NCBI GenBank assembly: GCA_964493715.1
Contig: CAZBPC010000059.1
Coordinates: forward strand, 1-21,554
Length of the DNA: 21,554 nt
DNA from: an uncultured archaeon
GTDB taxonomy: Archaea > Asgardarchaeota > Lokiarchaeia > Sigyniarchaeales > SOKP01
Reading direction: 5' to 3'
Shown: positions 2,333 to 20,668 of the stretch, in pieces
Numbering within the stretch: position 1 is the first letter of the stretch
Layout of the letters: each line of letters opens with the position of its first letter
Notes under the pieces: model-generated
What the model saw: the letters and a program-made list of their open reading frames with translations, nothing else
Told to the model about the DNA's origin: nothing
Database searches by the model: none
Position numbers and translations under genes: made by a program

Positions 2333-3472
2333 TTAGGTTTTTTCTAACTCCATTTGACTAATGGCACGACCTGATCTAAAAGGAATGTCGTCCATGCTAT
2401 CTCCCGAAGCATACCCAAATTTCTCTTTAAATGCATCGTTTAATGATTGGAAGTATAGTGAAAGCGGTAAGTGTTGAGGACAGTTATTATCGCAATTTCC
2501 ACATTCGACGCAACGATCTGCTACGTGTGCAATGCGTGTTAGCTGGTACGTCTCTTTATTTATGGACTTTTCTTTACGCTTCTTCTGCACAATGCAATCT
2601 ACACAATAACAAACCGGACAACCTCTAATGCATGTATTACACATAGTACACGCTTGAAGTTTATCGATCTTTTCTGCTTGAGGTAATTTGTCCCATTCTT
2701 CTAGATCTTTTACTCTTTTTGCAAGTGCATTTTCTTTAATCTCTTTAATCTTATCCGAGAGTTTTGTCTTGAGATCACCTGAAAGTGGTTTCTTATCGAT
2801 CTTCGATCTTTCAACAAGTTCATTACCTTTATCAGAATAGACTTTTAAAATAATTTCATCCGAATCGATTGACATTGTTAATTCATTGAGACCTAAATCC
2901 GCAACAACAGGGATTTTACGAGTGCACCTACTGCAATTTTCAGCAATATCTAATGCTACATCAATAACACTTCCATCCTCCATTTTAAACATTAATCCCT
3001 TATCACCGATTTTTTCTCTAACAATTTTAGTCTTATCGATGTCTGGGAAATTTCTCATCTCTCGAGATACGTTAATAATCATTCCTCTATCTTCAAAAGC
3101 GATAATAAATAAATTCTCTAAACTAATTTGCTTTATTTTAGCAAGCTCAATTATAGCTCTGGTATCGCAAGGACGTGCAATAAGTCCGATTTTTTCATGT
3201 AAGGCCCCTTGTAGTGTTTTATGAAGGTATTTTGCTGCTGAATCAGTTCTTGCATATCCATAAGCTAACAAATTTGTTAGTGGAAATGAAGTTATATCCT
3301 CTACCTTTTCATATACTATGGGCTGAACGGTAAATCGATCTTCCACATTAGTTTTTTTATCGATTTTTGTCTCTGCTCCCAAAATCTTGTCTACAACTTT
3401 CTCTTTAAGGAGAGTTTGCAAGAGTTTTGGAAAGTCATCAATTTTAATTAGATATTCTGCAATTGAATCCAT
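2333..3472 (-). CDS. FdhB/FrhB-family F420-oxidoreductase beta-like subunit with C-terminal 2x[4Fe-4S]
   Basis: KIGLIARPCDTRAIIEL, NCSRC, CTMCNTCIRGCPVCYCVDC and CVECGNCDNNCP are typical of FdhB-like proteins. Confidence 0.85.
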   Translation of the reverse strand: MDSIAEYLIKIDDFPKLLQTLLKEKVVDKILGAETKIDKKTNVEDRFTVQPIVYEKVEDITSFPLTNLLAYGYARTDSAAKYLHKTLQGALHEKIGLIARPCDTRAIIELAKIKQISLENLFIIAFEDRGMIINVSREMRNFPDIDKTKIVREKIGDKGLMFKMEDGSVIDVALDIAENCSRCTRKIPVVADLGLNELTMSIDSDEIILKVYSDKGNELVERSKIDKKPLSGDLKTKLSDKIKEIKENALAKRVKDLEEWDKLPQAEKIDKLQACTMCNTCIRGCPVCYCVDCIVQKKRKEKSINKETYQLTRIAHVADRCVECGNCDNNCPQHLPLSLYFQSLNDAFKEKFGYASGDSMDDIPFRSGRAISQMELEKT

Positions 3473-4155: not shown

Positions 4156-6123
4156 TTACTCTTCTATAGGAAGTAATTCATCAATTAATGCCATGTATTG
4201 GACATCCCTAAAGTACGTCAGTTCGATTGCTTGTGATGGACAGATAGCGGCACACGTACCACAACCTCGACATTTAATTAAATCCACGACGATATTTCCA
4301 TTTTCATTGATTGAGATTGCACTATATGGACATGCTTCGATGCATTTATAACATTTAGCACATCGCTCATCAGAGGGGGTAGCTCGAATTAATTCCATGG
4401 TGTATTTACCTTTACCCATTGGAATACCTGCAGCTGATGCTGCACCTCGAGCTTGTCCGACAGCGTACGCAATTCCTTTTTGTCCTTGACATGAACCTGC
4501 GAGATATATTCCTGGAACTTTAGTGCTAATCGGATCTAATCTAGGATGGTATTCCTTGAGAAACCCATCAGGACTTTTTTCCATATTTAACACTTGTGCA
4601 ATTTCATTAGTACCTTGAGACGGAAGGGATGCTGATGAGAGAATCACCATGTGATATTCTTGTTGCACCACTGTATCAGCTCCAACGATTTCCATTTGAA
4701 CTTTTAGATTTTTCGTTAAAGGATCTTCTTCAATTTTTCCTACAAGTCCTTTAGTGAAAATGATTCCAGCATCTCGAGCTCTCCTGTAGTATTCCTCGTA
4801 ATCTTTTCCGCAATTCCTCATATCTATATAAGATACCATGATCTGGGTTTCAGGATGTTCAGATATTATTAGCTTAGAATTTTTTACTGATAAATTACAA
4901 CAAACTACTGAACAATATGGATTAGTCTTCACATCACGAGATCCAACGCAATTAATGAACAATATTTTTGTAGGTCGTTTTTTATCAGATGGTCTAATTA
5001 GATGACCATAGGTTGGTCCATTAGGCGCTAAAATTCTTTCAAGCTGAATTTGTGTCAGGACATTTTCGAACTTGCCATATCCATAATCAGGTCCCTGGTA
5101 GATATCCCAACCAGTAGCTACTATGATTGTGCCCACATCAAGTTCCACAATCTCATCTTGCATGCTAAAATCTATTGATTCTTGATCACATGCATCTACA
5201 CATCCGAAGCATTCGACACAGGAATCTCTTACGATATCATAGATTGCGGGTACTGCTTGAGCGAATGCAATATCAATGACCTTACGAGCCGAAAGATTCT
5301 CGTCAAAGAAGTTTGGGACATAAATCGGACAAGCATCAGTGCATTGTCCACACCCAGTGCACGTTTTTTCACTTACAAATCGTGCTTTTCTTCTCACTTT
5401 TACTTTGAAATTGCCAATATAACCATCAATAGAATCAACTTCTGAATATGTCATTAAATTGATTTTTGAGTGTCTATTGGCTTCAAGCATCTTTGGCCCA
5501 AGTATTCAAATGCTGCAATCATCGGTAGGAAATGTTCGATCTAACTGGCTCATCCTTCCTCCTATCGTGCTCTTTTTCTCCACTAAATAAACTTGATAAC
5601 CAGCATCACCTAGATCGATAGCAGTACTTAGTCCCGCAATTCCTCCTCCAACCACTAAAGCGGCTTTTGTGACTGGAACTGTTTTTGTAGGCACGTCTTC
5701 CAATAATCTTGCTCGTGCTATTCCTGCTCTAATTAGATCAATAGCTTTCAGGAGTGCTTTATCTCGCTCACCTTGATGCACAAATGAACAATGTTCTCTA
5801 ATGTTTACAAACTCTAAATATCGTGGAGGTAAACCTGCTTCAGCTAAAATTGCATGAAAGACGGGTTGATGCGTCTTTGGGGTGCACGCTGCAACCACGA
5901 TTCGATCCAATTTGGCTTCTATGATTTGTTCTTTTATGTAGGTAGATCCCCCTTCAGTACACATCGATAAATATTCGAATGCTTTGACGCCGGGATACGT
6001 ATTAAGTACTTCAACGATTTTAGGAACATCCAAAATACCAGCGATATTGATACCTCAGCGACACACGAAAACGCCAACGATAGATAATTCGTTTTTTAAA
6101 TCTTTGGTCTGTTTTCCAGACAA
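4156..6123 (-). CDS. hdrA: Heterodisulfide reductase subunit A, selenoprotein (UGA at 6055-6057 and 5506-5508), 655 aa
   Basis: One frame from TTG 6123 (AAGGTG upstream): VGVFVCRU23GINIAGILDV...GGGIAG...FPTDDCSIU206ILGPKM...CVGSRD...YCSVVCC...C-terminal ferredoxin. It joins track ORFs 5506-6033 and 4156-5490. Confidence 0.93.
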
Positions 6124-11345: not shown

Positions 11346-11885
11346 TTATTTATTTCCAAACTCGGTAACATCACCAAAAAGACGCCTGATCGAATCAATA
11401 CGCTTCTCTTCACCGATTTGTTCGACATTCTTGAGTGAAATCGCTTCTTTGGGACATACTGCTATGCATTGGGGCTCTCTCTTACCAATTTCGGGGTCGA
11501 TGAAATCTTCTTTCATGTTTTCGCACAAATCACACACCAAGGCTTTTTGGGAGACTATATGCATCGTCATCACTCCAAAATCGCATGCTCTTGCACAAAA
11601 ACCGCAACCATTGCATTTATCTTCATCTACAAGGATGGAACCATCTTCAGCTTTATCTAATGCTTTTTCTGGACATGCAGTCACGCAAGGTGCATCTTCG
11701 CACTTCTGGCATGCTAAGGCAATGTTAAACACGGGTTCAATTCTAACTCGATGAATTCGCGTGTTAATTGGATTGAATTCTCCATCATGAACAAAGGAAC
11801 AAACAGATTCACACGTTTCACAACCCGTACAGAGGTCTGGATCGACGATGATAAATTGGTGAATCCTTTTTTTCCGTGCTGCCAT
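11346..11885 (-). CDS. 4x[4Fe-4S] electron-transfer subunit (DmsB/HycB/AorB-like) partnered with AOR
   Basis: CTGCETCESVC, CQKCEDAPCVTACP, CNGCGFCARAC, CDLC...PQCIAVCP; start overlaps the aor stop. Confidence 0.9.
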   Translation of the reverse strand: MAARKKRIHQFIIVDPDLCTGCETCESVCSFVHDGEFNPINTRIHRVRIEPVFNIALACQKCEDAPCVTACPEKALDKAEDGSILVDEDKCNGCGFCARACDFGVMTMHIVSQKALVCDLCENMKEDFIDPEIGKREPQCIAVCPKEAISLKNVEQIGEEKRIDSIRRLFGDVTEFGNK

Positions 11886-13819
11886 TATTTTTTACCTCCC
11901 TTTGTCGCTGCTGGTTTTAGTTTTCCAATAACAAAATCTAATCCCAATCTCTTCAACGTGTCATCAGTAGGAATTCCGGTTTCTTTATCCCAACCTCTCG
12001 CTTCATAATAGCCACTTAGAAGTGTTTGGTATCCATCTTCCTTGAGAGTTACACCTTTAGCAGGACCTTTTGTATGTGCATCCTTGAAGAACTTCTCGGG
12101 TGGGTGATCATCTGCTCGTGTCCATCCTTCTCTAATGTTGAAACACTTGGAAAGGTTTACTATTGCTTCTCCACGTTTCAGGATTGATTCTTCAGTGTGT
12201 GGAATGCCAGTAACGAGTTCATATACTTTTGCCATTTCTGCATCGTTTTCATATATGCCTCGTGTGAACTTGCAGATGATATAAGAATCGATGATGGCAT
12301 ACACGTCCTCAGTTTCTATAATCTTCTTTCCTCTTTCAAGAGGTTTTTCATATCCAAAGCGGTCAAAAGTCCCTTTTGCATCCAATCCATATGATCCATT
12401 ACGCAAATGGCAAGCACCACGAATGGATACGCTCTCTCCGACCGCGAAGGAGGTCATGCCATGTAAATCGAACGCGGGCATTTCTAGGCCTTTGATCTGC
12501 ATGCCATAATAACTTGCATTTTTGCGACCCATTTCCTCCAAACGAATTCCAGCTTGTTTGCATCCATCACCGAAAATTTTGCCTGCGAACCCGGTACCCA
12601 TACAGATTTCTTCAGTAAATTTCACTAAATTAGTAGTAGATCCAAATGGAAGTTCATAACCGAGATCTTTTTTGGTAATTAATCCGACGTCATAAAGCTC
12701 GCACGCCATGCTGGCCGTTACTCCTCCACTGATTGCGTCAATCCCTAAATTATCGCATAATTCAATACACTTAAATACAGTGGGCCAATCTGAGTTACCA
12801 GTATTCGTGCCGAATGAATAACACATTTCCACATCCACAGAAGCTATCAAGTTAGGATATTCAGGATGAGTTTTTGGGACTCTTGCTATATGATCACAGG
12901 CGATGGAACATTGTGAACATGCCACTTTCTTCACGATCCAATCTTGATTAAGTGTATCTCCTGTGAATGCTCCATTATCAATTTCTTCCCAAGTTCCTTC
13001 TCGATAATTCCTGGTAGGCATCATTCCAAGTTTGTTATAACTTGTTAATCCTGATGGTGTTCCTAAATCTCGATATTTAGATGTTGCTGGTCCATTTGCT
13101 ACTTTAATAAGTTTTTTTGCGGCTTTGTAAAATTCTACTGGTTGCGCTACTTTGATGCTTTGGGTGCCCCTAAAACAGATAGCTTTTAAATTCTTACTTC
13201 CCATTACAGCCCCCATCCCTGTTCGACCAGCTTGTCTGTTTCGATCATTAGTAATGCATCCCATACGGCTCATGCGTTCACCAGAAGGACCTATTGACAT
13301 CACAGCTAATCTATGATCTTGAAAATCTTCCCGTATGAGTTCCTCAGTTTCGAAATTCCCTTTTCCCCAAACAGTTTTTTCACATGGCACAAGGTAGTAA
13401 TCACCATCGTCTACAACCAAATAGACTGGTTCAGAAGATTTACCTTTGATAACTATCGTGTTGATGCCTGCCCTTCGAGCTTGAGCTCCAACAGAACCCG
13501 AGGAAATAGCCATTCCAAACATTCCAGTTAGCGGAGATTTAGCAAATACACCGTATTTTGAACTTGTAGGTAAAATTGTTGATGGAAAAGGACCAATTGC
13601 CCAAACAAATACATTTTCGGGACTTAAAGGATCCGCCCCGGGCTTCAATTCATCCCATAGGATTTTAGCGCCAAAACCGTACCCCCCAATCCAGTCTCGA
13701 ACGAATTCATTCGATAATGTTGATTTGTCAATTTTTCCATTAGTTAAATCCACATCCAGCCTAACTTGAGAATAGCCAGTTATCGTGTCTGGTATGGGGA
13801 TATCCTTAGATTTACTCAT
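11885..13819 (-). CDS. aor: Tungsten-dependent aldehyde:ferredoxin oxidoreductase family protein
   Basis: KSPLTG, AGRTGMGAVMGSKNLKAI, CSQCSIAC, DNLGIDAISG, RGACH, YYEARGWD..G.PT. Confidence 0.93.
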   Translation of the reverse strand: MSKSKDIPIPDTITGYSQVRLDVDLTNGKIDKSTLSNEFVRDWIGGYGFGAKILWDELKPGADPLSPENVFVWAIGPFPSTILPTSSKYGVFAKSPLTGMFGMAISSGSVGAQARRAGINTIVIKGKSSEPVYLVVDDGDYYLVPCEKTVWGKGNFETEELIREDFQDHRLAVMSIGPSGERMSRMGCITNDRNRQAGRTGMGAVMGSKNLKAICFRGTQSIKVAQPVEFYKAAKKLIKVANGPATSKYRDLGTPSGLTSYNKLGMMPTRNYREGTWEEIDNGAFTGDTLNQDWIVKKVACSQCSIACDHIARVPKTHPEYPNLIASVDVEMCYSFGTNTGNSDWPTVFKCIELCDNLGIDAISGGVTASMACELYDVGLITKKDLGYELPFGSTTNLVKFTEEICMGTGFAGKIFGDGCKQAGIRLEEMGRKNASYYGMQIKGLEMPAFDLHGMTSFAVGESVSIRGACHLRNGSYGLDAKGTFDRFGYEKPLERGKKIIETEDVYAIIDSYIICKFTRGIYENDAEMAKVYELVTGIPHTEESILKRGEAIVNLSKCFNIREGWTRADDHPPEKFFKDAHTKGPAKGVTLKEDGYQTLLSGYYEARGWDKETGIPTDDTLKRLGLDFVIGKLKPAATKGGKK

Positions 13820-14132: not shown

Positions 14133-16886
14133 ATGACTGAATCAAAAGGTATTGAGAGCACTAAAAAAGAACAAACTAAACTTCCAAAGGAAGTAATTGA
14201 TAAAGTAAAAGAAGCAGCAAATTATTGTTATAGTTGTAATCGATGTGTTAACGTGTGTCCTCTCTCTCTCATGGGAACCTTTTTTCCCAGACAGTTAATT
14301 ATGGATTTAACTTTCCTAACACCTGAGGAAGCATTAGAACGCAATAATATATGGAGTTGCTTAACATGCGGAAGGTGCATGGAATATTGTCCCATGTTTT
14401 CAGAGAAAAAAGGCGTTAACTTTCTTGATATAATCTTAAATCTCAGAACTCTTGTTTCAGATTATGAACCATTAGAAGTAGAAAAAGTAAATGCTCATCA
14501 TGATCGAGAATATTCAAGTTTACCTTATCTTATGGCAAATGATTTAATTGATACCCATAAAAAGCTTGGTTTTTTAGAAAACACTAATTTAAAAATTGCT
14601 AATAATGGTGAGATAGCATACTTTATGGGATGTTTACCTTTTATGAATTCCATTGCGCCCTGTACTAATGCTTGTCCTGCCGGAATTGATGTTCAAGGTT
14701 ATATCGCATTAATAGCAGAAGGCAAATTTCAAGAAGCTATTGATTTAATTAGAGAAAAAAATCCATTCCCCATGATATGTGCTCGTATCTGCACAGAACC
14801 GTGTGCACTAGCTTGTAATAGAAAAGAGATTGATGATCCAATTGCAATCCGGGGACTAAAACGATTTATCTCAGATTGGGAATTAAATAATAACCTAGAA
14901 TCAAAGATCCAACCCGTCGAGCAAAATAAAGAAAAAGTTGCTATAATAGGTGCTGGTCCAGGAGGTTTATCAGCAGCCTATTTCTTAGCTAGAAAAGGAT
15001 ATAAACCCAGTGTATTTGAAGCAGAAATTTATAAGGGCGGTACATTAAGATCGGGAATCCCTAGATATCGATTGCCTGCTTATATCTTAGATTATGAAAT
15101 TGAATTTATTGAAAAGATGGGAGTTACAATTAAAACTAATACAGCCATAGGACCAAGTTTAAACTTTGAAAAGTTAGAAAAGCAAGGGTTTAAAGCATTT
15201 TTTATATCAATTGGTCAACAAACTTGTTTAGAGATGAAAATTGAGGGTGCTGACCTTAAAAATGTATTATGTGGTCTTAATTTTCTCAAACAAAAAAATC
15301 TAACTAAAAAACAATTCGAATTTAAAGATAAAATTATTGGTGTGATTGGTGGAGGAAATGTAGCCATGGATTCCGCAAGAACTGCTTTGAGGTTAGGTGC
15401 TAAAAAAGTAATTGTAATTTATCGGCGCTCTGAGAAAGAGATGCCTGCTTCAGAAGAAGAAATCGAAATGGCTAAGGAAGAGGATATAGATTTTCAATTC
15501 TTGACTAATCCCATAAGAGTAATTGGAGACAAAGATGGACATATTAAAGAAGTAGAATGCATGAGGATGAAGCTTGGTGAACCAGATCCTTCTGGACGAA
15601 GACGACCCCTCCCAATTGAGGGATCAGAATTTAAAATGAATATTGATGTCATGATCCTTGCAATAGGACAGGGTACTGATTTGACTTTATTAGAAGCTGC
15701 TAATGATCAATTAAAAACAGATAGATGGGGTAAAATAGAAGCTGATGACGTAACGCTACAAACAACGATTCCCAATATTTTTGCGGGAGGAGATGTAATT
15801 GAAGGTGAAGGAATCGCTATTAGAGCAATTGCTCATGGATATGACGCAGCAGAATCTATTGACCGATACCTTAGAGGTATTGATCTGAAAAAAAATAGAA
15901 CCTTAAGAAAATATGCAAAGATTGCCCCTATCCCTAAAAAGAATGCCCATGAAATGTCAAAAGAAACTTTAGATATTTTACCCTTAGAAAAGCGATTACG
16001 AGGATTTGACGAAATTGAGTTAGGGATGACAGAAGAACGGGCAATTCAAGAAGCAAGCAGATGTTTAAATTGTAACATTTGTAGTAGCACCGATCAAAAA
16101 CTTGAAGCCTATGACAATGCGTGTGATGAGTCTAACATTCAAGAATGTTCTTATGGATTTCAACCGACTATTCAATGTTACAATGCCTTGGATTTCTTAG
16201 AGATTCCAAAAACAGTAATAGGTTTATTAAATCAGAAAGATATAGTGCCCGTAGTTCTTTCAAGTGAAAAATGTTGTGGTCATGATAGTTTATGGCAAGG
16301 AGATACCAACTCATTCGAGAGTTTAGCAAAATATAATGTGAAACTATTTAAAGATGCCGGAGTAAAGACAATAGTATTCAGTTGTGCTGAAGGTTATTAT
16401 ACTTGGAAACATGAATATCCAAAATTATTTAAGAACCCTCAAGAGTTCGATTTTGAGATATACCACATTACAGAATACATCTTAAAAAAGGATTTATTAG
16501 AGGATTTAAAATTCCCAATCATGGATAAAATTAAAGTTACTTATCATGATGCTTGCAGGCTTGGTCGCATGAGTAATGTTTATGATGCTCCACGCGAAAT
16601 ACTTGAAAAAATCCCTTTCATTGAAATGGTTGAAATGAAAAGCAATAAAAGCGATGCATTATGTTGTGGTGTATCCTCATATATTAGTTGTAATGAGGAT
16701 TCAAGAATGATACAAGCCGAACGCATTAAAGAGGCTATCGATACTGGTGCGGATTACTTAATCGTTAGTTGCCCTAAATGTTTAGCTCATCTCAATTGTT
16801 ACTTGAATGAAAATAAGGAACAAAAGAACAAAATAAAAATAATGGATTTAACCACGTTCCTGGGAAAATTACTCTTTCTTAACTAA
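14133..16886 (+). CDS. HdrD-like (2x[4Fe-4S] + 2 CCG) protein with an inserted GltD/NfnB-type FAD/NAD(P)H module
   Basis: CYSCNRCVNVCP and CLTCGRCMEYCP; AYFMGC167; insert APCTNACPAG...GAGPGG...GGGNVAMD...YRRS...EASRCLNCNICS; then CCGHD, FSCAEG, YHDACRLGR, CCGV, SCPKC. Confidence 0.88.
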   Translation: MTESKGIESTKKEQTKLPKEVIDKVKEAANYCYSCNRCVNVCPLSLMGTFFPRQLIMDLTFLTPEEALERNNIWSCLTCGRCMEYCPMFSEKKGVNFLDIILNLRTLVSDYEPLEVEKVNAHHDREYSSLPYLMANDLIDTHKKLGFLENTNLKIANNGEIAYFMGCLPFMNSIAPCTNACPAGIDVQGYIALIAEGKFQEAIDLIREKNPFPMICARICTEPCALACNRKEIDDPIAIRGLKRFISDWELNNNLESKIQPVEQNKEKVAIIGAGPGGLSAAYFLARKGYKPSVFEAEIYKGGTLRSGIPRYRLPAYILDYEIEFIEKMGVTIKTNTAIGPSLNFEKLEKQGFKAFFISIGQQTCLEMKIEGADLKNVLCGLNFLKQKNLTKKQFEFKDKIIGVIGGGNVAMDSARTALRLGAKKVIVIYRRSEKEMPASEEEIEMAKEEDIDFQFLTNPIRVIGDKDGHIKEVECMRMKLGEPDPSGRRRPLPIEGSEFKMNIDVMILAIGQGTDLTLLEAANDQLKTDRWGKIEADDVTLQTTIPNIFAGGDVIEGEGIAIRAIAHGYDAAESIDRYLRGIDLKKNRTLRKYAKIAPIPKKNAHEMSKETLDILPLEKRLRGFDEIELGMTEERAIQEASRCLNCNICSSTDQKLEAYDNACDESNIQECSYGFQPTIQCYNALDFLEIPKTVIGLLNQKDIVPVVLSSEKCCGHDSLWQGDTNSFESLAKYNVKLFKDAGVKTIVFSCAEGYYTWKHEYPKLFKNPQEFDFEIYHITEYILKKDLLEDLKFPIMDKIKVTYHDACRLGRMSNVYDAPREILEKIPFIEMVEMKSNKSDALCCGVSSYISCNEDSRMIQAERIKEAIDTGADYLIVSCPKCLAHLNCYLNENKEQKNKIKIMDLTTFLGKLLFLN

Positions 16887-17046
16887 TTTTTATTATTCTC
16901 TGCTTTAAAGGGTTAAGTAATAAAATATATAATCAATTAATCTCGTTTCACTTTTTTATAATCATCAATTTAAAAATAATTGATTAATTTAGAATGCTTA
17001 AGGATAGTCATTTTAATATTAAATATTACAAAATTGTTGTGCTATA

Positions 17047-17931
17047 ATGCCTTATAAAATTTTAGAGAAAAACGAGCTCGGAAAAAGTGGAGTATTGTTT
17101 GAGATGATGATATCTACTCCATTAATTGCGAAAAAAGCTCATGCTGGGAATTTTATACTCCTTCGCATAAATGAAACTGGAGAAAGATTTCCCCTAACTA
17201 TTGCTGATTATGATCGAGACGAAGGAACTATAACAATTGTATTCCAAGTTGTTGGTAAGAGTACAAAGCAACTATCAAGCCTAAATATTGGTGATGAGAT
17301 TCTTGATGTTGTAGGTCCTTTAGGTAATAAAATTCACATCCAAAAGTATGAACATCCAGTGATACTCATCGGTGGAGGCGTCGGAATAGCTCCCGTTTAT
17401 CCCCAAGCAAAAGAATTGAAGGAAGTTGGAAATACTATAATCTGTATATTAGGTGCTAGAAATACGGATTTATTATTTTGGCGTGAGAAGTTAAGAAGCG
17501 TAAGTGATGAATTAATAATATGCACTGATGATGGAACTGAAGGTATTAAAGGAGTAGTAACAGAACCACTGAAAGATATAATTATTCATCGAAAAATTAG
17601 TATTGTCGTTGCAATTGGACCATTGATAATGATGAAATATGTCGCACTCACAACTGATGGATCTAGAGATTTACCCAAGGTTAAAACCTTTGCTTCTTTA
17701 AATACTATCATGATTGATGGAACTGGGATGTGTGGTGGATGCCGATTTACCACTCGGGATGGAGAAATTTATCATTCTTGTGTAGATGGCCCAGATGTTG
17801 ATGCCCATATGGTAGATTTTGATAATTTATTAAATCGTGCAAAGAGATTTAATGAACAAGAAAAACAATCATTAGAAAAATATGATAATGAATGTAGAGC
17901 ATTAAATAAATTTAACAGTGAGGCACACTAA
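17047..17931 (+). CDS. nfnA: NfnA/SudB-type FAD/NAD-binding [2Fe-2S] small subunit
   Basis: GERFPLTIAD, VGPLG, GGGVGIAP, DGTGMCGGCR, CVDGPD. Confidence 0.92.
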   Translation: MPYKILEKNELGKSGVLFEMMISTPLIAKKAHAGNFILLRINETGERFPLTIADYDRDEGTITIVFQVVGKSTKQLSSLNIGDEILDVVGPLGNKIHIQKYEHPVILIGGGVGIAPVYPQAKELKEVGNTIICILGARNTDLLFWREKLRSVSDELIICTDDGTEGIKGVVTEPLKDIIIHRKISIVVAIGPLIMMKYVALTTDGSRDLPKVKTFASLNTIMIDGTGMCGGCRFTTRDGEIYHSCVDGPDVDAHMVDFDNLLNRAKRFNEQEKQSLEKYDNECRALNKFNSEAH

Positions 17932-17932
17932 A

Positions 17933-20668
17933 ATGGAAAACCCATCACCTTTAATCAAAATTTTAAATGATAATGAATCTAAAATTTTAACAAATGGTAA
18001 ATATAATAAAAATCAATTCGATTATTTAATACGTTCATTAACCCAAGCGGAAAGTTTACGATTCCAAATCTTAGAAAAAATTAAAGAAACAGGTAAAGTT
18101 GATGTTGAAAAAATTAAGTTGGAACTGGGGCTTTCAGATGAGATTGTAGAAATAAACATTGATTATTTAAGAGAATTAGGATTGTTAGGTTTTATAAATG
18201 AACATCCCAGATTTTTCCGAGAGATTATTGAAAATTCTGATCATCCTGGGATATTTCCAAGTACCCAACTAATTAAAGACAGAAATCTTTGTTGTGGATG
18301 TGGATTATGTGTAGCAATTTGCCCAGTTAATGCAATAGACTATTTAGAGGGAACTTTCAAAATTAATGAGGATAAATGTATAAAATGTGGCTTATGTTAT
18401 TCAGCTTGTCCGAGATCATTTTTTCCACAGCAATTAAATGAATTAGAGCAAAAAAATGATCAAAACGTTCAGTTTTCTGAACAATTTAAATATTATCGTA
18501 TGCTATGTACCGCCCAAACGACCGAAGAGAGAATTAAATCGGTGGCACAAGATGGAGGCATAGTTACAACATTATTAAAAACAGCATTTAAACAAGGTTA
18601 TATAGATGGTTCTTTTGCAGTTACTTTAGGGGACCAACCATTAAAACCCTTACCAATTTTTGTTGAAAACGAAGAATCTCTTTTAAAAACAGCTGGAACT
18701 AAGTACACCAATGTTCCATTATTAAAAATATTTTATGATGCGAAAGATCATAAAAAAATTGCAGTAGTAGGAACACCTTGCATAATGAAAGCGCTCAAAA
18801 AAATCTCAGCCCTTCCTTTAAATAAGCCTTTCTTTGACAATATAGCATTAAAGATTGGAGTTTTTTGTATGGAATCATTTGATTATCATAAAATTGAAGA
18901 GCTGTTAAAAAACGAGTTTAACGTGTATCCCTCTGATATAAAAAAGATGGATATAGATAAAGGTAAATTTATCATTTATGATCAAGATAGTAACATCTCT
19001 AAAATCCCTATTAAAAGTATTAAGAAATATGGACGATTTGGGTGTTTTTTTTGCGATGATTTAACAGCAGAACATGCTGATATTTCAGTAGGATCAATCG
19101 GTTCAGAACCTGGGTGGTCAACTGTAATAATTAGGACAAAAAAAGGCGAAGAATTTTGTCATAAAGCTTTTGATATGAAGTTAATTAGAAAAAAGGAAAT
19201 TGGAGAAGGAGACAAGAGTTTTGAAGATTTAAGTAAAATTGCTAAGTCAAAACAAAAGAAATTTATTGAATTTCGAAGGGTTAAGATGCTTCAACAAGAA
19301 CCCAGTGAAAGAATTAAAAATTTTGAAGAAGTTCCTTTTGGATTATCTGATGAAATGATGGAACGTGAAGTTCAACGATGTTTGCAGTGCGGTCTCCCGT
19401 TATGCGTTACGGGTTGCCCCGTTAATATCAGAATACCTGAATTTATTAAACTTCTTAAAGAAGAAAAATACATATCCGCTCTTTATAAAATTAAAAGTAG
19501 TAATCTTTTACCTGCTATCTGTGGACGCGTTTGTCCACAAGAAGTGCAATGTGAAAATTCATGTCTACTAGGATCTCTTGGAGAACCCATTGCTATTGGT
19601 TATTTGGAAAGGTACATTGCAGATTGGGAAAGAAGAAATAAATTAAAGGAATGCCCTGATTGTGCTGCTCCTACGGGAATAAAAGTTGCAGTAATTGGTT
19701 CTGGACCTGCTGGATTAGCATGTGCCGGAGAACTTGCAATGAGGGGATATGACGTAACTATATTTGAAGCATTTCATGCTGGAGGAGGTGTATTGACTTA
19801 TGGAATTCCCGAATTTAGATTGCCGAAGGAGATTGTCAAAGATGAGATAGAAACTCTCAAAATGATTGGTGTTAAAGTAAATTATAATGCAATCATTGGA
19901 AAAATCTTAACGATTGAAGATTTACAGGAAATGGACTTTAAAGCGTTTTTCATTGGAGTTGGAGCAGGATTACCAACCTTCTTAAATGTTTCTGGGTTGA
20001 ACTTAAATGGTGTTCTTTCAGCCAATGAATTCTTAACTCGTTCTAATCTAATGAAAGCTTATAGATTCCCCGAATATGATACACCAGTTAAAGTTGGTAA
20101 AATTGTTACGGTAATTGGTGGAGGGAATGTAGCTTTAGATTCAGCTCGAACTGCTTTAAGATTGGGTGCTGAACGAGTTATTATTGTATATAGGAGATCA
20201 GAAGCAGAAATGCCTGCCAGAAGGGAAGAATATCACCATGCTTTAGAGGAAGGAATAGATTTTCAATTTTTGACTAATCCTGTGAGATTTGTGGGTGATG
20301 AAGAAGGAAATGTAAGAAAAATGGAAGTTTTAAAGATGAAATTAGGTGAACCGGATCAATCTGGGCGTAGAAGCCCAATACCTATCGAAAATTCAGAATA
20401 CGCAATAGACACTGATATGATAATAGTCGCTGTAGGAACTAAAGCAAATCCAGTTCTTACGAAATCTATACCAGAATTAAAGATCAATAAATGGGGATAC
20501 ATTGAGACTAATGATGATGGTCAAACTAACATTGAGCATATTTTCGCAGGAGGAGATATTGTTACTGGATCTGCCACGGTGATTTCTGCCATGGGTGCTG
20601 GGAAAAAAGCTGCAAAAGCAATGGATGAATACTTAAGAAGAAAATATATCCCGGAAGAAAAAGACTAA
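17933..20668 (+). CDS. Fusion: winged-HTH-like segment + ferredoxin + FrhB-type F420-binding domain + NfnB/SudA large subunit
   Basis: Likely start ATG 17933 (GTGAGG upstream). CCGCGLCVAICP, CIKCGLCYSACP, AQDGGIVT, VGTPC, GVFCMESF, GCFFCDD..ADISVGS; then RCLQC..PLCVTGCPV, CGRVCPQEVQCE, YGIPEFRLP, AGGDIVTGSATVISAMGAG. Confidence 0.9.
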   Translation: MENPSPLIKILNDNESKILTNGKYNKNQFDYLIRSLTQAESLRFQILEKIKETGKVDVEKIKLELGLSDEIVEINIDYLRELGLLGFINEHPRFFREIIENSDHPGIFPSTQLIKDRNLCCGCGLCVAICPVNAIDYLEGTFKINEDKCIKCGLCYSACPRSFFPQQLNELEQKNDQNVQFSEQFKYYRMLCTAQTTEERIKSVAQDGGIVTTLLKTAFKQGYIDGSFAVTLGDQPLKPLPIFVENEESLLKTAGTKYTNVPLLKIFYDAKDHKKIAVVGTPCIMKALKKISALPLNKPFFDNIALKIGVFCMESFDYHKIEELLKNEFNVYPSDIKKMDIDKGKFIIYDQDSNISKIPIKSIKKYGRFGCFFCDDLTAEHADISVGSIGSEPGWSTVIIRTKKGEEFCHKAFDMKLIRKKEIGEGDKSFEDLSKIAKSKQKKFIEFRRVKMLQQEPSERIKNFEEVPFGLSDEMMEREVQRCLQCGLPLCVTGCPVNIRIPEFIKLLKEEKYISALYKIKSSNLLPAICGRVCPQEVQCENSCLLGSLGEPIAIGYLERYIADWERRNKLKECPDCAAPTGIKVAVIGSGPAGLACAGELAMRGYDVTIFEAFHAGGGVLTYGIPEFRLPKEIVKDEIETLKMIGVKVNYNAIIGKILTIEDLQEMDFKAFFIGVGAGLPTFLNVSGLNLNGVLSANEFLTRSNLMKAYRFPEYDTPVKVGKIVTVIGGGNVALDSARTALRLGAERVIIVYRRSEAEMPARREEYHHALEEGIDFQFLTNPVRFVGDEEGNVRKMEVLKMKLGEPDQSGRRSPIPIENSEYAIDTDMIIVAVGTKANPVLTKSIPELKINKWGYIETNDDGQTNIEHIFAGGDIVTGSATVISAMGAGKKAAKAMDEYLRRKYIPEEKD

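Follow-up and report, generated by a model that had tools for sequence, protein, structure and literature searches.

What is gained when a domain of the F420-reductase type is joined, in one polypeptide chain, to the NADPH-binding subunit of an electron-bifurcating transhydrogenase? The question is raised by a locus in a Lokiarchaeia genome (3.68 Mb in 160 contigs, 100% complete, about 33% G+C), of which one entire contig (C59, 21,554 bp), here called the window, was analysed. The locus consists of nfnA, for the small subunit of the transhydrogenase NfnAB, and a fusion gene whose product leads from a helical N-terminal domain through a ferredoxin domain and an FrhB-type domain to a complete NfnB module (Table 1). 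Among transhydrogenases, Nfn is the textbook case of flavin-based electron bifurcation: NfnAB bifurcates the electrons of NADPH to NAD+ and ferredoxin, and its low-potential outlet normally serves free ferredoxin. Domains of the FrhB/FpoF type exchange hydride with F420. On balance it is probable, though only slightly so, that NfnA and the fusion protein together make up an iron-sulfur flavoenzyme of the Nfn type, with a low-potential branch covalently extended to an F420 site.

An NfnB fusion encoded directly behind nfnA

The small subunit can be identified readily. The nfnA product scores 355 bits against PRK06222 (cut-off 220) and matches PF10418, PF00175 and PF00970 in Pfam. Among structures in the PDB it finds the Pyrococcus furiosus NfnI small subunit (5jca_S, 295 bits) and Thermotoga maritima NfnA (4ylf_A, 248 bits); with the small subunit of Xfn it scores 150 bits, and it is judged closer to the NfnI than to the Xfn small subunit. 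Its [2Fe-2S] motif, DGTGMCGGC...C, aligns with that of the P. furiosus protein. In its own genome nfnA is single-copy, the next best tblastn match being 32% identical.

The C-terminal half of the fusion protein is assigned as a bona fide NfnB. Residues of this protein are numbered throughout from a GTG at 17918 (the 916-aa reading, in which ATG 17933 encodes M6). Pfam finds Fer4_20 (PF14691, residues 465-575, 129 bits) and Pyr_redox_2 (PF07992, residues 589-895, 138 bits); the two [4Fe-4S] motifs within Fer4_20 and the Rossmann domains for flavin adenine dinucleotide (FAD) and NADPH are those of the large subunit of an NfnI-type NfnAB, and the matching small subunit, NfnA, is encoded beside it. 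Its identity to T. maritima NfnB, an enzyme with known biochemistry, is 56%, and a Foldseek search with its predicted structure returned NfnB structures at TM scores of 0.87-0.88 (target-normalised) and 53-56% identity. The cluster motifs C-x2-C-x4-C-x3-CP and CGRVCPQEVQCExxC are letter-identical to those of T. maritima NfnB, and C488, C491, C496, C500, C539, C545, C549, E542 and E546 are invariant in the 54 fusion proteins aligned; the glutamate in the motif is presumably a ligand of one [4Fe-4S] cluster. No second true NfnB was found in the genome by tblastn, the next best match being the 917-aa gene upstream of nfnA (44% identical).

Public databases name such proteins 'glutamate synthase (NADPH/NADH) small chain' or 'NADPH-dependent glutamate synthase', and the fusion protein does exceed the cut-off of TIGR01316, labelled 'gltA' (585 bits against 471.75). 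That it serves as the small subunit (GltD) of an NADPH-dependent glutamate synthase is nevertheless hardly credible, and this candidate was rejected. Its NfnB half matches the solved NfnB of T. maritima (4ylf_B) with 563 bits, NfnI-L (5jca_L) with 518 and Xfn (5vj7_A) with 491, against 281 bits for GltD; no open reading frame in the window encodes the GltB domains of a large subunit, and the partner gene is nfnA.

The sequence-only reading had described nfnA as abutting a 911-aa gene composed of a ferredoxin plus FrhB-type N-terminal half and a full NfnB from about position 19270, and the description holds in all its parts. The nfnA stop codon (17929-17931) and the fusion ATG are separated by one base; the product has 911 aa when read from that ATG; Fer4, FrhB_FdhB_N and FrhB_FdhB_C families match the N-terminal half; and T. 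maritima NfnB aligns from nt 19274 onwards. The ATG at 17933 appears a likelier start than the GTG at 17918, because M6 is kept in at least 90% of the 54 aligned homologues, because the fusion reading frames of relatives begin right behind the nfnA stop, and because GTGAGG just upstream resembles a ribosome-binding site.

An assembly chimera could produce such a gene, and was ruled out by the many carriers in the family and by independent metagenome contigs that bridge the junction. Logan contigs from four of four metagenome runs showed no indels across the stretch, and those of two runs span the FrhB/NfnB junction itself, one (X3) over 18706-20055 with no differences and one from another study (X6) over 19042-19447 with three. 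Among the 22 runs listed for the stretch there was no RNA run. The fusion, which the sequence-only reading would have given up had it been confined to one assembly, is widespread within one Asgard family: at least 58 of the 133 genomes of the window's own family carry it, 55 of them near-full-length, two split at contig ends and one (G147) as a divergent short variant. This count comes from a survey of the phylum (398 genomes, best two candidates scored per genome, about 150 of 727 matches listed); outside the family, the full-length fusion was absent among the matches listed, which span the NfnB half alone. Five genomes carry two copies, in tandem in one of them (G175, C211:65366-70870) and on separate contigs in the other four, and nfnA lies directly upstream of the fusion gene in all 11 relatives' loci.

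Protein collections gave a similar picture. In a collection of 5.8 billion proteins, 90 of the 120 clusters listed are of 855-935 aa, have the same Pfam set and are 58-95% identical to the fusion protein; the sources of the closest relatives are named Lokiarchaeota, Promethearchaeota or Hermodarchaeota. The FrhB half used alone as query (candidates of 503-1603 aa) retrieved 143 proteins at E<=1e-10. Of the 120 matches listed for that query, all those that are FrhB-NfnB fusions come from the same group, and beyond them the next relatives are stand-alone ferredoxin-FrhB proteins, about 506 aa long and with 43-46% identity.

The ferredoxin-FrhB module and its F420 context

The N-terminal half most resembles F420-dependent enzymes of solved structure. 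All eight cysteines of its ferredoxin domain (C125, C128, C131, C135, C154, C157, C160 and C164) are invariant in the fusion proteins, and 8riu_B, Fsr and FrhG have ferredoxin domains with which it can be aligned. Behind it, FrhB_FdhB_N (PF04422) matches residues 198-271 with 67 bits and FrhB_FdhB_C (PF04432) residues 279-428 with 152 bits, against a Pfam cut-off of 23.3. The ten best PDB matches of the half are without exception F420-dependent enzymes or chains named F420 hydrogenase/dehydrogenase beta. The best, 8riu_B (190 bits), spans both the ferredoxin and the FrhB domain, and it is followed by FrhB of Methanosarcina barkeri (6qgr_B, 182 bits), FrhB of Methanothermobacter marburgensis (3zfs_C, 166 bits), the F420-reducing subunit of formylmethanofuran dehydrogenase, Fwd (8rja_E, 163 bits), and Fsr (7npa_A, 161 bits).

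The available text of PMC3591093 names the key residues of M. marburgensis FrhB, namely the cluster cysteines, the FAD helix, the loops and the turn that faces F420, and these can be followed into the fusion protein through the 3zfs_C alignment. Cys104, 134, 192 and 195 of the M. marburgensis protein are all matched, and the FrhB-domain cysteines C288, C317, C376 and C379 are invariant in the fusion proteins. The start of the FAD helix, AQDGGIVT, and the Lys75-Tyr76 loop, GTKYT, are retained; the F420-facing turn 163-IGKGK reads IDKGK, and Ser209-Val210 reads Ser-Ile. Across the 54 proteins each of these motif positions is either invariant or kept in at least 90% (K348 at least 90%; G349 and S393 invariant). 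The domain thus has the four cluster cysteines, the FAD-binding motifs and the conserved putative F420 pocket of the FrhB family. An F420 site in this half is plausible, since the iron-sulfur, FAD and F420-loop motifs are retained and the best solved matches are F420 enzymes.

Whether the host makes F420, on which the sequence-only reading had its proposal depend, can be answered from the genome. Genes for cofG (376 bits), cofH (462 bits), cofD (310 bits) and cofE (267 bits) all exceed their cut-offs, and a cofC-like gene falls below (83 bits against 105); the F420-dependent enzyme Mtd is present (PF01993, 356 bits). A canonical Mer was looked for and rejected (best match 139 bits, cut-off 348.7). 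Fno gave no match in this 100%-complete genome (TIGR01915), and an F420-reducing hydrogenase was not found there, the best FrhA match reaching 146 bits against a cut-off of 392.5. The family as a whole has cofH in 114 of 133 genomes, so that F420 use is common to the family, which is consistent with the F420 reading without discriminating for it. In none of the 133 genomes does a canonical Fno exceed the cut-off. Fno-like genes that score below it are present in 54, mainly in one genus (g12) that itself has fusions, and the idea of a complementary distribution of fusion and Fno was dropped: no family genome has a canonical Fno, and the Fno-like genes co-occur with the fusion in that genus.

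The genome holds 12 matches to the FrhB_C family, seven of them at 124 bits or more. At C65:1-1203 and C41:4611-6429, FrhB paralogues lie directly beside NfnA/PyrK-like genes that are 28-32% identical to NfnA, and since the genome has no Fno they are candidates for further links between F420 and NAD(P). At C117:5591-7405 an FrhB-like stretch is followed by a GltD-like one.

Proposed electron path, energetics and alternatives

In the mechanism that we propose, NADPH would reduce the bifurcating FAD of the NfnB module, from which one electron would pass through the [2Fe-2S] cluster and the FAD of NfnA to NAD+. The other would travel through the two [4Fe-4S] clusters of NfnB, the two of the ferredoxin domain and that of the FrhB domain, five [4Fe-4S] clusters in all, to the FrhB FAD, which would gather two electrons and reduce F420. 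The net reaction would be 2 NADPH + NAD+ + F420 = 2 NADP+ + NADH + F420H2; it is expected to lie near equilibrium at standard conditions and would probably run toward F420H2 at a high cellular NADPH/NADP ratio. The enzyme would in this way fill or empty the F420 pool on which Mtd draws. Motifs support the chain of cofactors, and F420 binding, the wiring between domains, the direction of flow and bifurcation itself we infer; the order of electron transfer is modelled on NfnAB and on Fsr. An AlphaFold model of the fusion protein has a mean predicted local distance difference test score (pLDDT) of 82.3 and a predicted template-modelling score of 0.78. A complex prediction of residues 1-452 against residues 453-916, made with its own alignment, gave ipSAE values of 0.00 and 0.01 (mark 0.32), which speak neither for nor against binding.

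Several observations weigh against an F420-linked bifurcating enzyme, and the first of them concern F420 itself. The N-terminal half falls below the NCBIfam cut-offs for FrhB (PRK09325, 257.4 against 269; TIGR03289, 231.3 against 331.5) and far below that for FpoF (NF040616, 147.2 against 475), so that it can be classed as a member of the FrhB family by Pfam but as no FrhB or FpoF equivalog by NCBIfam. FrhB-family domains also match in the F420-free control genomes of Synechococcus and Bacteroides. Possession of cofH is not enriched with the fusion (51 of 58 fusion genomes, 63 of 75 others), and four fusion-bearing genomes (G168, G145, G146 and G229) gave neither a cofG nor a cofH match. The low scores, the control genomes and these four hosts are what might be expected if the module kept its FAD and cluster and used another acceptor or donor in place of F420, or merely stored electrons. 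We consider such a role improbable. The 54 proteins conserve the positions of the F420 loop and pocket; the ten closest solved relatives are the F420-linked proteins listed above; all four of the genomes just named have cofD; and of the seven fusion genomes without a cofH match, the five examined all have cofD (three over the cut-off, two cut by contig ends) and one has cofG, while the window's own genome has cofG, cofH, cofD and cofE. The two FrhB paralogues on C41 and C65 are a separate difficulty for the proposed role, in that they could equally connect F420 with NAD(P).

The main conceptual weakness is energetic. In the literature F420 is placed at about -340 to -350 mV. NAD(P) lies at -320 mV, and the overall reaction is therefore near isopotential: bifurcation with F420 would conserve little energy compared with the ferredoxin form and would bring no obvious gain over a simple Fno. 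On such grounds bifurcation might be unnecessary, and the protein could be a non-bifurcating F420H2:NAD(P)+ wire, or an input module for a partner such as the HdrC-GltD-HdrB protein encoded upstream (14133-16886), with the NfnB FAD merely oxidising or reducing NADPH. An Hdr-like gene indeed precedes nfnA here, in four of 11 fusion loci (where flanks are short) and in six of six unfused loci of the same genus. Yet NfnA and every residue of the NfnAB cluster chain are kept, with 56% identity to an enzyme for which bifurcation is proven; the Hdr-like gene has a GltD-like NAD(P)H module of its own; and a 160-bp AT-rich spacer, possibly with a promoter belonging to the nfnA/fusion pair, lies in front of nfnA. 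We give this alternative little credence.

The last point of this kind is that the ferredoxin/FrhB module is dispensable, given relatives that lack it at the same locus. In six genomes of the same genus (G255, G244, G243, G247, G235 and G248) the synteny is the same, with the order HdrC-GltD-HdrB gene, nfnA, nfnB, but nfnB is an ordinary unfused gene; its product shares 76-78% identity with the fused NfnB half, and NfnA in these genomes is 70-72% identical. Two genomes of another genus (G184 and G200) are also unfused. In an IQ-TREE phylogeny of 77 NfnB modules (55 fused, nine unfused and 13 others, the last comprising nine stand-alone or otherwise fused relatives and four fragments of about 630 aa), four changes of fused/unfused label are needed, of which at least three are forced by well-supported branches. 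Not one of 200 bootstrap trees needs a single change only, and the approximately unbiased test rejects a single clade of the eight unfused family sequences (delta lnL 119.4, p 4e-9). The tree is unrooted, and gain and loss are formally indistinguishable in it; one gain of the module with repeated losses would be the simpler reading, because the N-terminal halves are homologous throughout. Since unfused nfnB occurs at the same synteny within the genus and the state has switched at least three times, the putative F420 module is to be seen as an exchangeable, optional adaptor, a point that the sequence-only reading did not contain, and as no obligatory part of the enzyme.

Such switching between orthologues of one synteny suggests a similar core role for both forms, and it raises the possibility that the fused protein is still a ferredoxin-dependent Nfn, to which the module adds an optional port, so that either ferredoxin or F420 could serve the low-potential branch of a four-pool hub. 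The fused protein is the only NfnB here, and a link between ferredoxin and NADP would otherwise be missing, given that window and genome encode ferredoxin-reducing enzymes, for instance an aldehyde:ferredoxin oxidoreductase. Against this, the attached ferredoxin domain most likely fills the docking site at the distal cluster, to judge from the description of 8RIU. A continuing use of free ferredoxin seems unlikely to us, if less so than the alternatives already set out.

The sequence-only reading had taken the fusion for a candidate F420-linked bifurcating enzyme, and this has found partial support. The motifs make an F420 site plausible; the label 'bifurcating' has to be qualified by the small energy gain, and the module is optional at this locus. 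The preferred reading remains an Nfn-type enzyme with its low-potential branch extended to an F420 site. Its most far-reaching form would be a bifurcating or confurcating enzyme that connects three hydride carriers, NADPH, NADH and F420, through the Nfn flavin without free ferredoxin, and that is also the main link between F420 and NAD(P) in a large Lokiarchaeia family devoid of canonical Fno; we hold this as a tentative proposal, with somewhat less than an even chance of being right.

The helical domain in front of the ferredoxin domain has L90, F113 and P114 invariant across the aligned fusion homologues. Searches with residues 1-115 gave only sub-threshold winged-helix leads (Pfam Mga helix-turn-helix at E 0.014; best Atlas score 0.82).

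The window contains further redox genes. In the 917-aa protein encoded upstream of nfnA on the forward strand, an HdrC-like 2x[4Fe-4S] domain is joined to an NAD(P)H flavoprotein module that resembles GltD/NfnB and to two HdrB-like CCG domains; the protein may be a (hetero)disulfide reductase that depends on NAD(P)H. On the reverse strand, two adjoining open reading frames at 4156-6033 form one frame in which an in-frame TGA (5506-5508) is the only interruption. If this codon is taken for selenocysteine, the product is a 625-aa HdrA-like protein containing '...DDCSIU-ILGPK...', with selenocysteine at what we take to be the site of the conserved cysteine or selenocysteine of HdrA; the pair is a candidate for an Asgard HdrA of the selenoprotein kind. 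Downstream of it on the same strand, 2333-3472 encodes a 379-aa protein with a weak FrhB_C match (25.8 bits) and Fer4_8. A ferredoxin-reducing aldehyde:ferredoxin oxidoreductase (AFOR_N 220 bits, AFOR_C 329 bits) is encoded at 11885-13819 and an adjoining 4Fe-4S protein at 11346-11885, both likewise on the reverse strand.

Table 1. Features of the nfnA/fusion locus, in window coordinates; residues are those of the fusion protein
Feature	Position	Strand	Details
AT-rich spacer before nfnA	16887-17046	+	160 bp, TATA-like runs; read from sequence
nfnA, small Nfn subunit (FAD, NAD(H) site, [2Fe-2S])	17047-17931	+	294 aa; PRK06222, Pfam and PDB matches
Ribosome-binding-site-like GTGAGG, inside nfnA end	17918-17923	+	9 nt before ATG; putative, from sequence reading
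Fusion gene: N-domain, ferredoxin domain, FrhB, NfnB	17933-20668	+	911 aa from ATG 17933; 916 aa from GTG 17918
Helical N-terminal domain	17933-18262	+	residues 6-115; pLDDT >90, all-helical, family-conserved
2x[4Fe-4S] ferredoxin domain	18272-18418	+	residues 119-167; Fer4 families (Pfam)
FrhB-type F420-reductase domain: FAD, one [4Fe-4S], putative F420 pocket	18482-19261	+	residues 189-448
NfnB module, complete: two [4Fe-4S], bifurcating-type FAD, NADPH site	19274-20668	+	residues 453-916

Relation to known Nfn and F420-dependent enzymes

Characterised NfnAB enzymes share with the present locus the two-gene operon nfnA-nfnB, an NfnB module (53-56% identity) in which both [4Fe-4S] motifs and the FAD/NADPH domains recur, and an NfnA with an Asp+3Cys [2Fe-2S] motif. 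The fusion protein differs from them by its N-terminal extension of 452 residues, made up of the helical, 2x[4Fe-4S] ferredoxin and FrhB domains, and F420 probably takes the place of free ferredoxin, or joins it, as the low-potential partner. To our knowledge, every characterised Nfn uses free ferredoxin on the low-potential side. If the F420 reading is correct, an F420-wired Nfn would be a new coupling of the three main soluble hydride carriers in anaerobic archaea. It would also help to explain the F420-dependent steps of the tetrahydromethanopterin-linked Wood-Ljungdahl pathway in Asgard archaea, in a genome with Mtd and without Fno or an F420-reducing hydrogenase. The database name 'glutamate synthase' misleads metabolic reconstruction of Lokiarchaeia, and the natural fused and unfused orthologues at one synteny provide a clean experimental contrast.

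The sequence-only reading knew of no earlier description of this architecture, and literature searches agree: no published FrhB-NfnB fusion was found in the open full-text literature, PMC9012536, PMC10116835, PMC11237513 and PMC10667645 among it, although supplementary gene tables may list one. NfnB/GltD-like modules have been joined to other redox modules elsewhere. The openly available text of PMC9012536 describes HdrA-NfnB insertions (HdrA9-11) in ANME-1 archaea, in which such a module is joined to HdrA, and the same kind of union is seen in the Bfu-type NfnABC/StnABC enzymes (9N5U, 9BOV, 8OH5). Their partners are HdrA, or formate-dehydrogenase-like and NuoEF-like modules; they have no FrhB domain, and their identity to the NfnB half is 36-41%.

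The N-terminal half has its own set of counterparts. FpoF/FqoF has the same order of ferredoxin and FrhB domains, and FpoF carries no fused C-terminal module. In Fsr, a sulfite reductase that depends on F420 (7NP8/7NPA), the order is again the same, a 2x[4Fe-4S] ferredoxin domain, an FrhB-type F420H2 oxidase and a fused catalytic module, but that module is a sulfite reductase there and NfnB here. A close parallel is provided by two enzymes of ethane-oxidising archaea, as presented in the accessible text of a preprint (bioRxiv 10.1101/2024.01.23.576903). In the F420-reducing carbon monoxide dehydrogenase (8RIU), the zeta subunit pairs a ferredoxin domain (1-83), which anchors it to the enzyme, with an F420-reductase domain (84-349); the other enzyme, 8RJA, is an F420-reducing formylmethanofuran dehydrogenase. 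Both follow the logic seen here, a ferredoxin plus FrhB module tied to an enzyme that would otherwise use free ferredoxin (190 and 163 bits to the N-terminal half), with the difference that the module is a separate subunit on carbon monoxide dehydrogenase or Fwd, and at the present locus forms one chain with NfnB and an extra helical N-terminal domain. By this analogy the fusion enzyme is best described as an NfnAB with an FrhB-type adaptor, built on the same principle as 8RIU and 8RJA, and it would extend to Nfn the recently solved principle by which an FrhB module turns ferredoxin-dependent enzymes (carbon monoxide dehydrogenase, Fwd) into F420-dependent ones.

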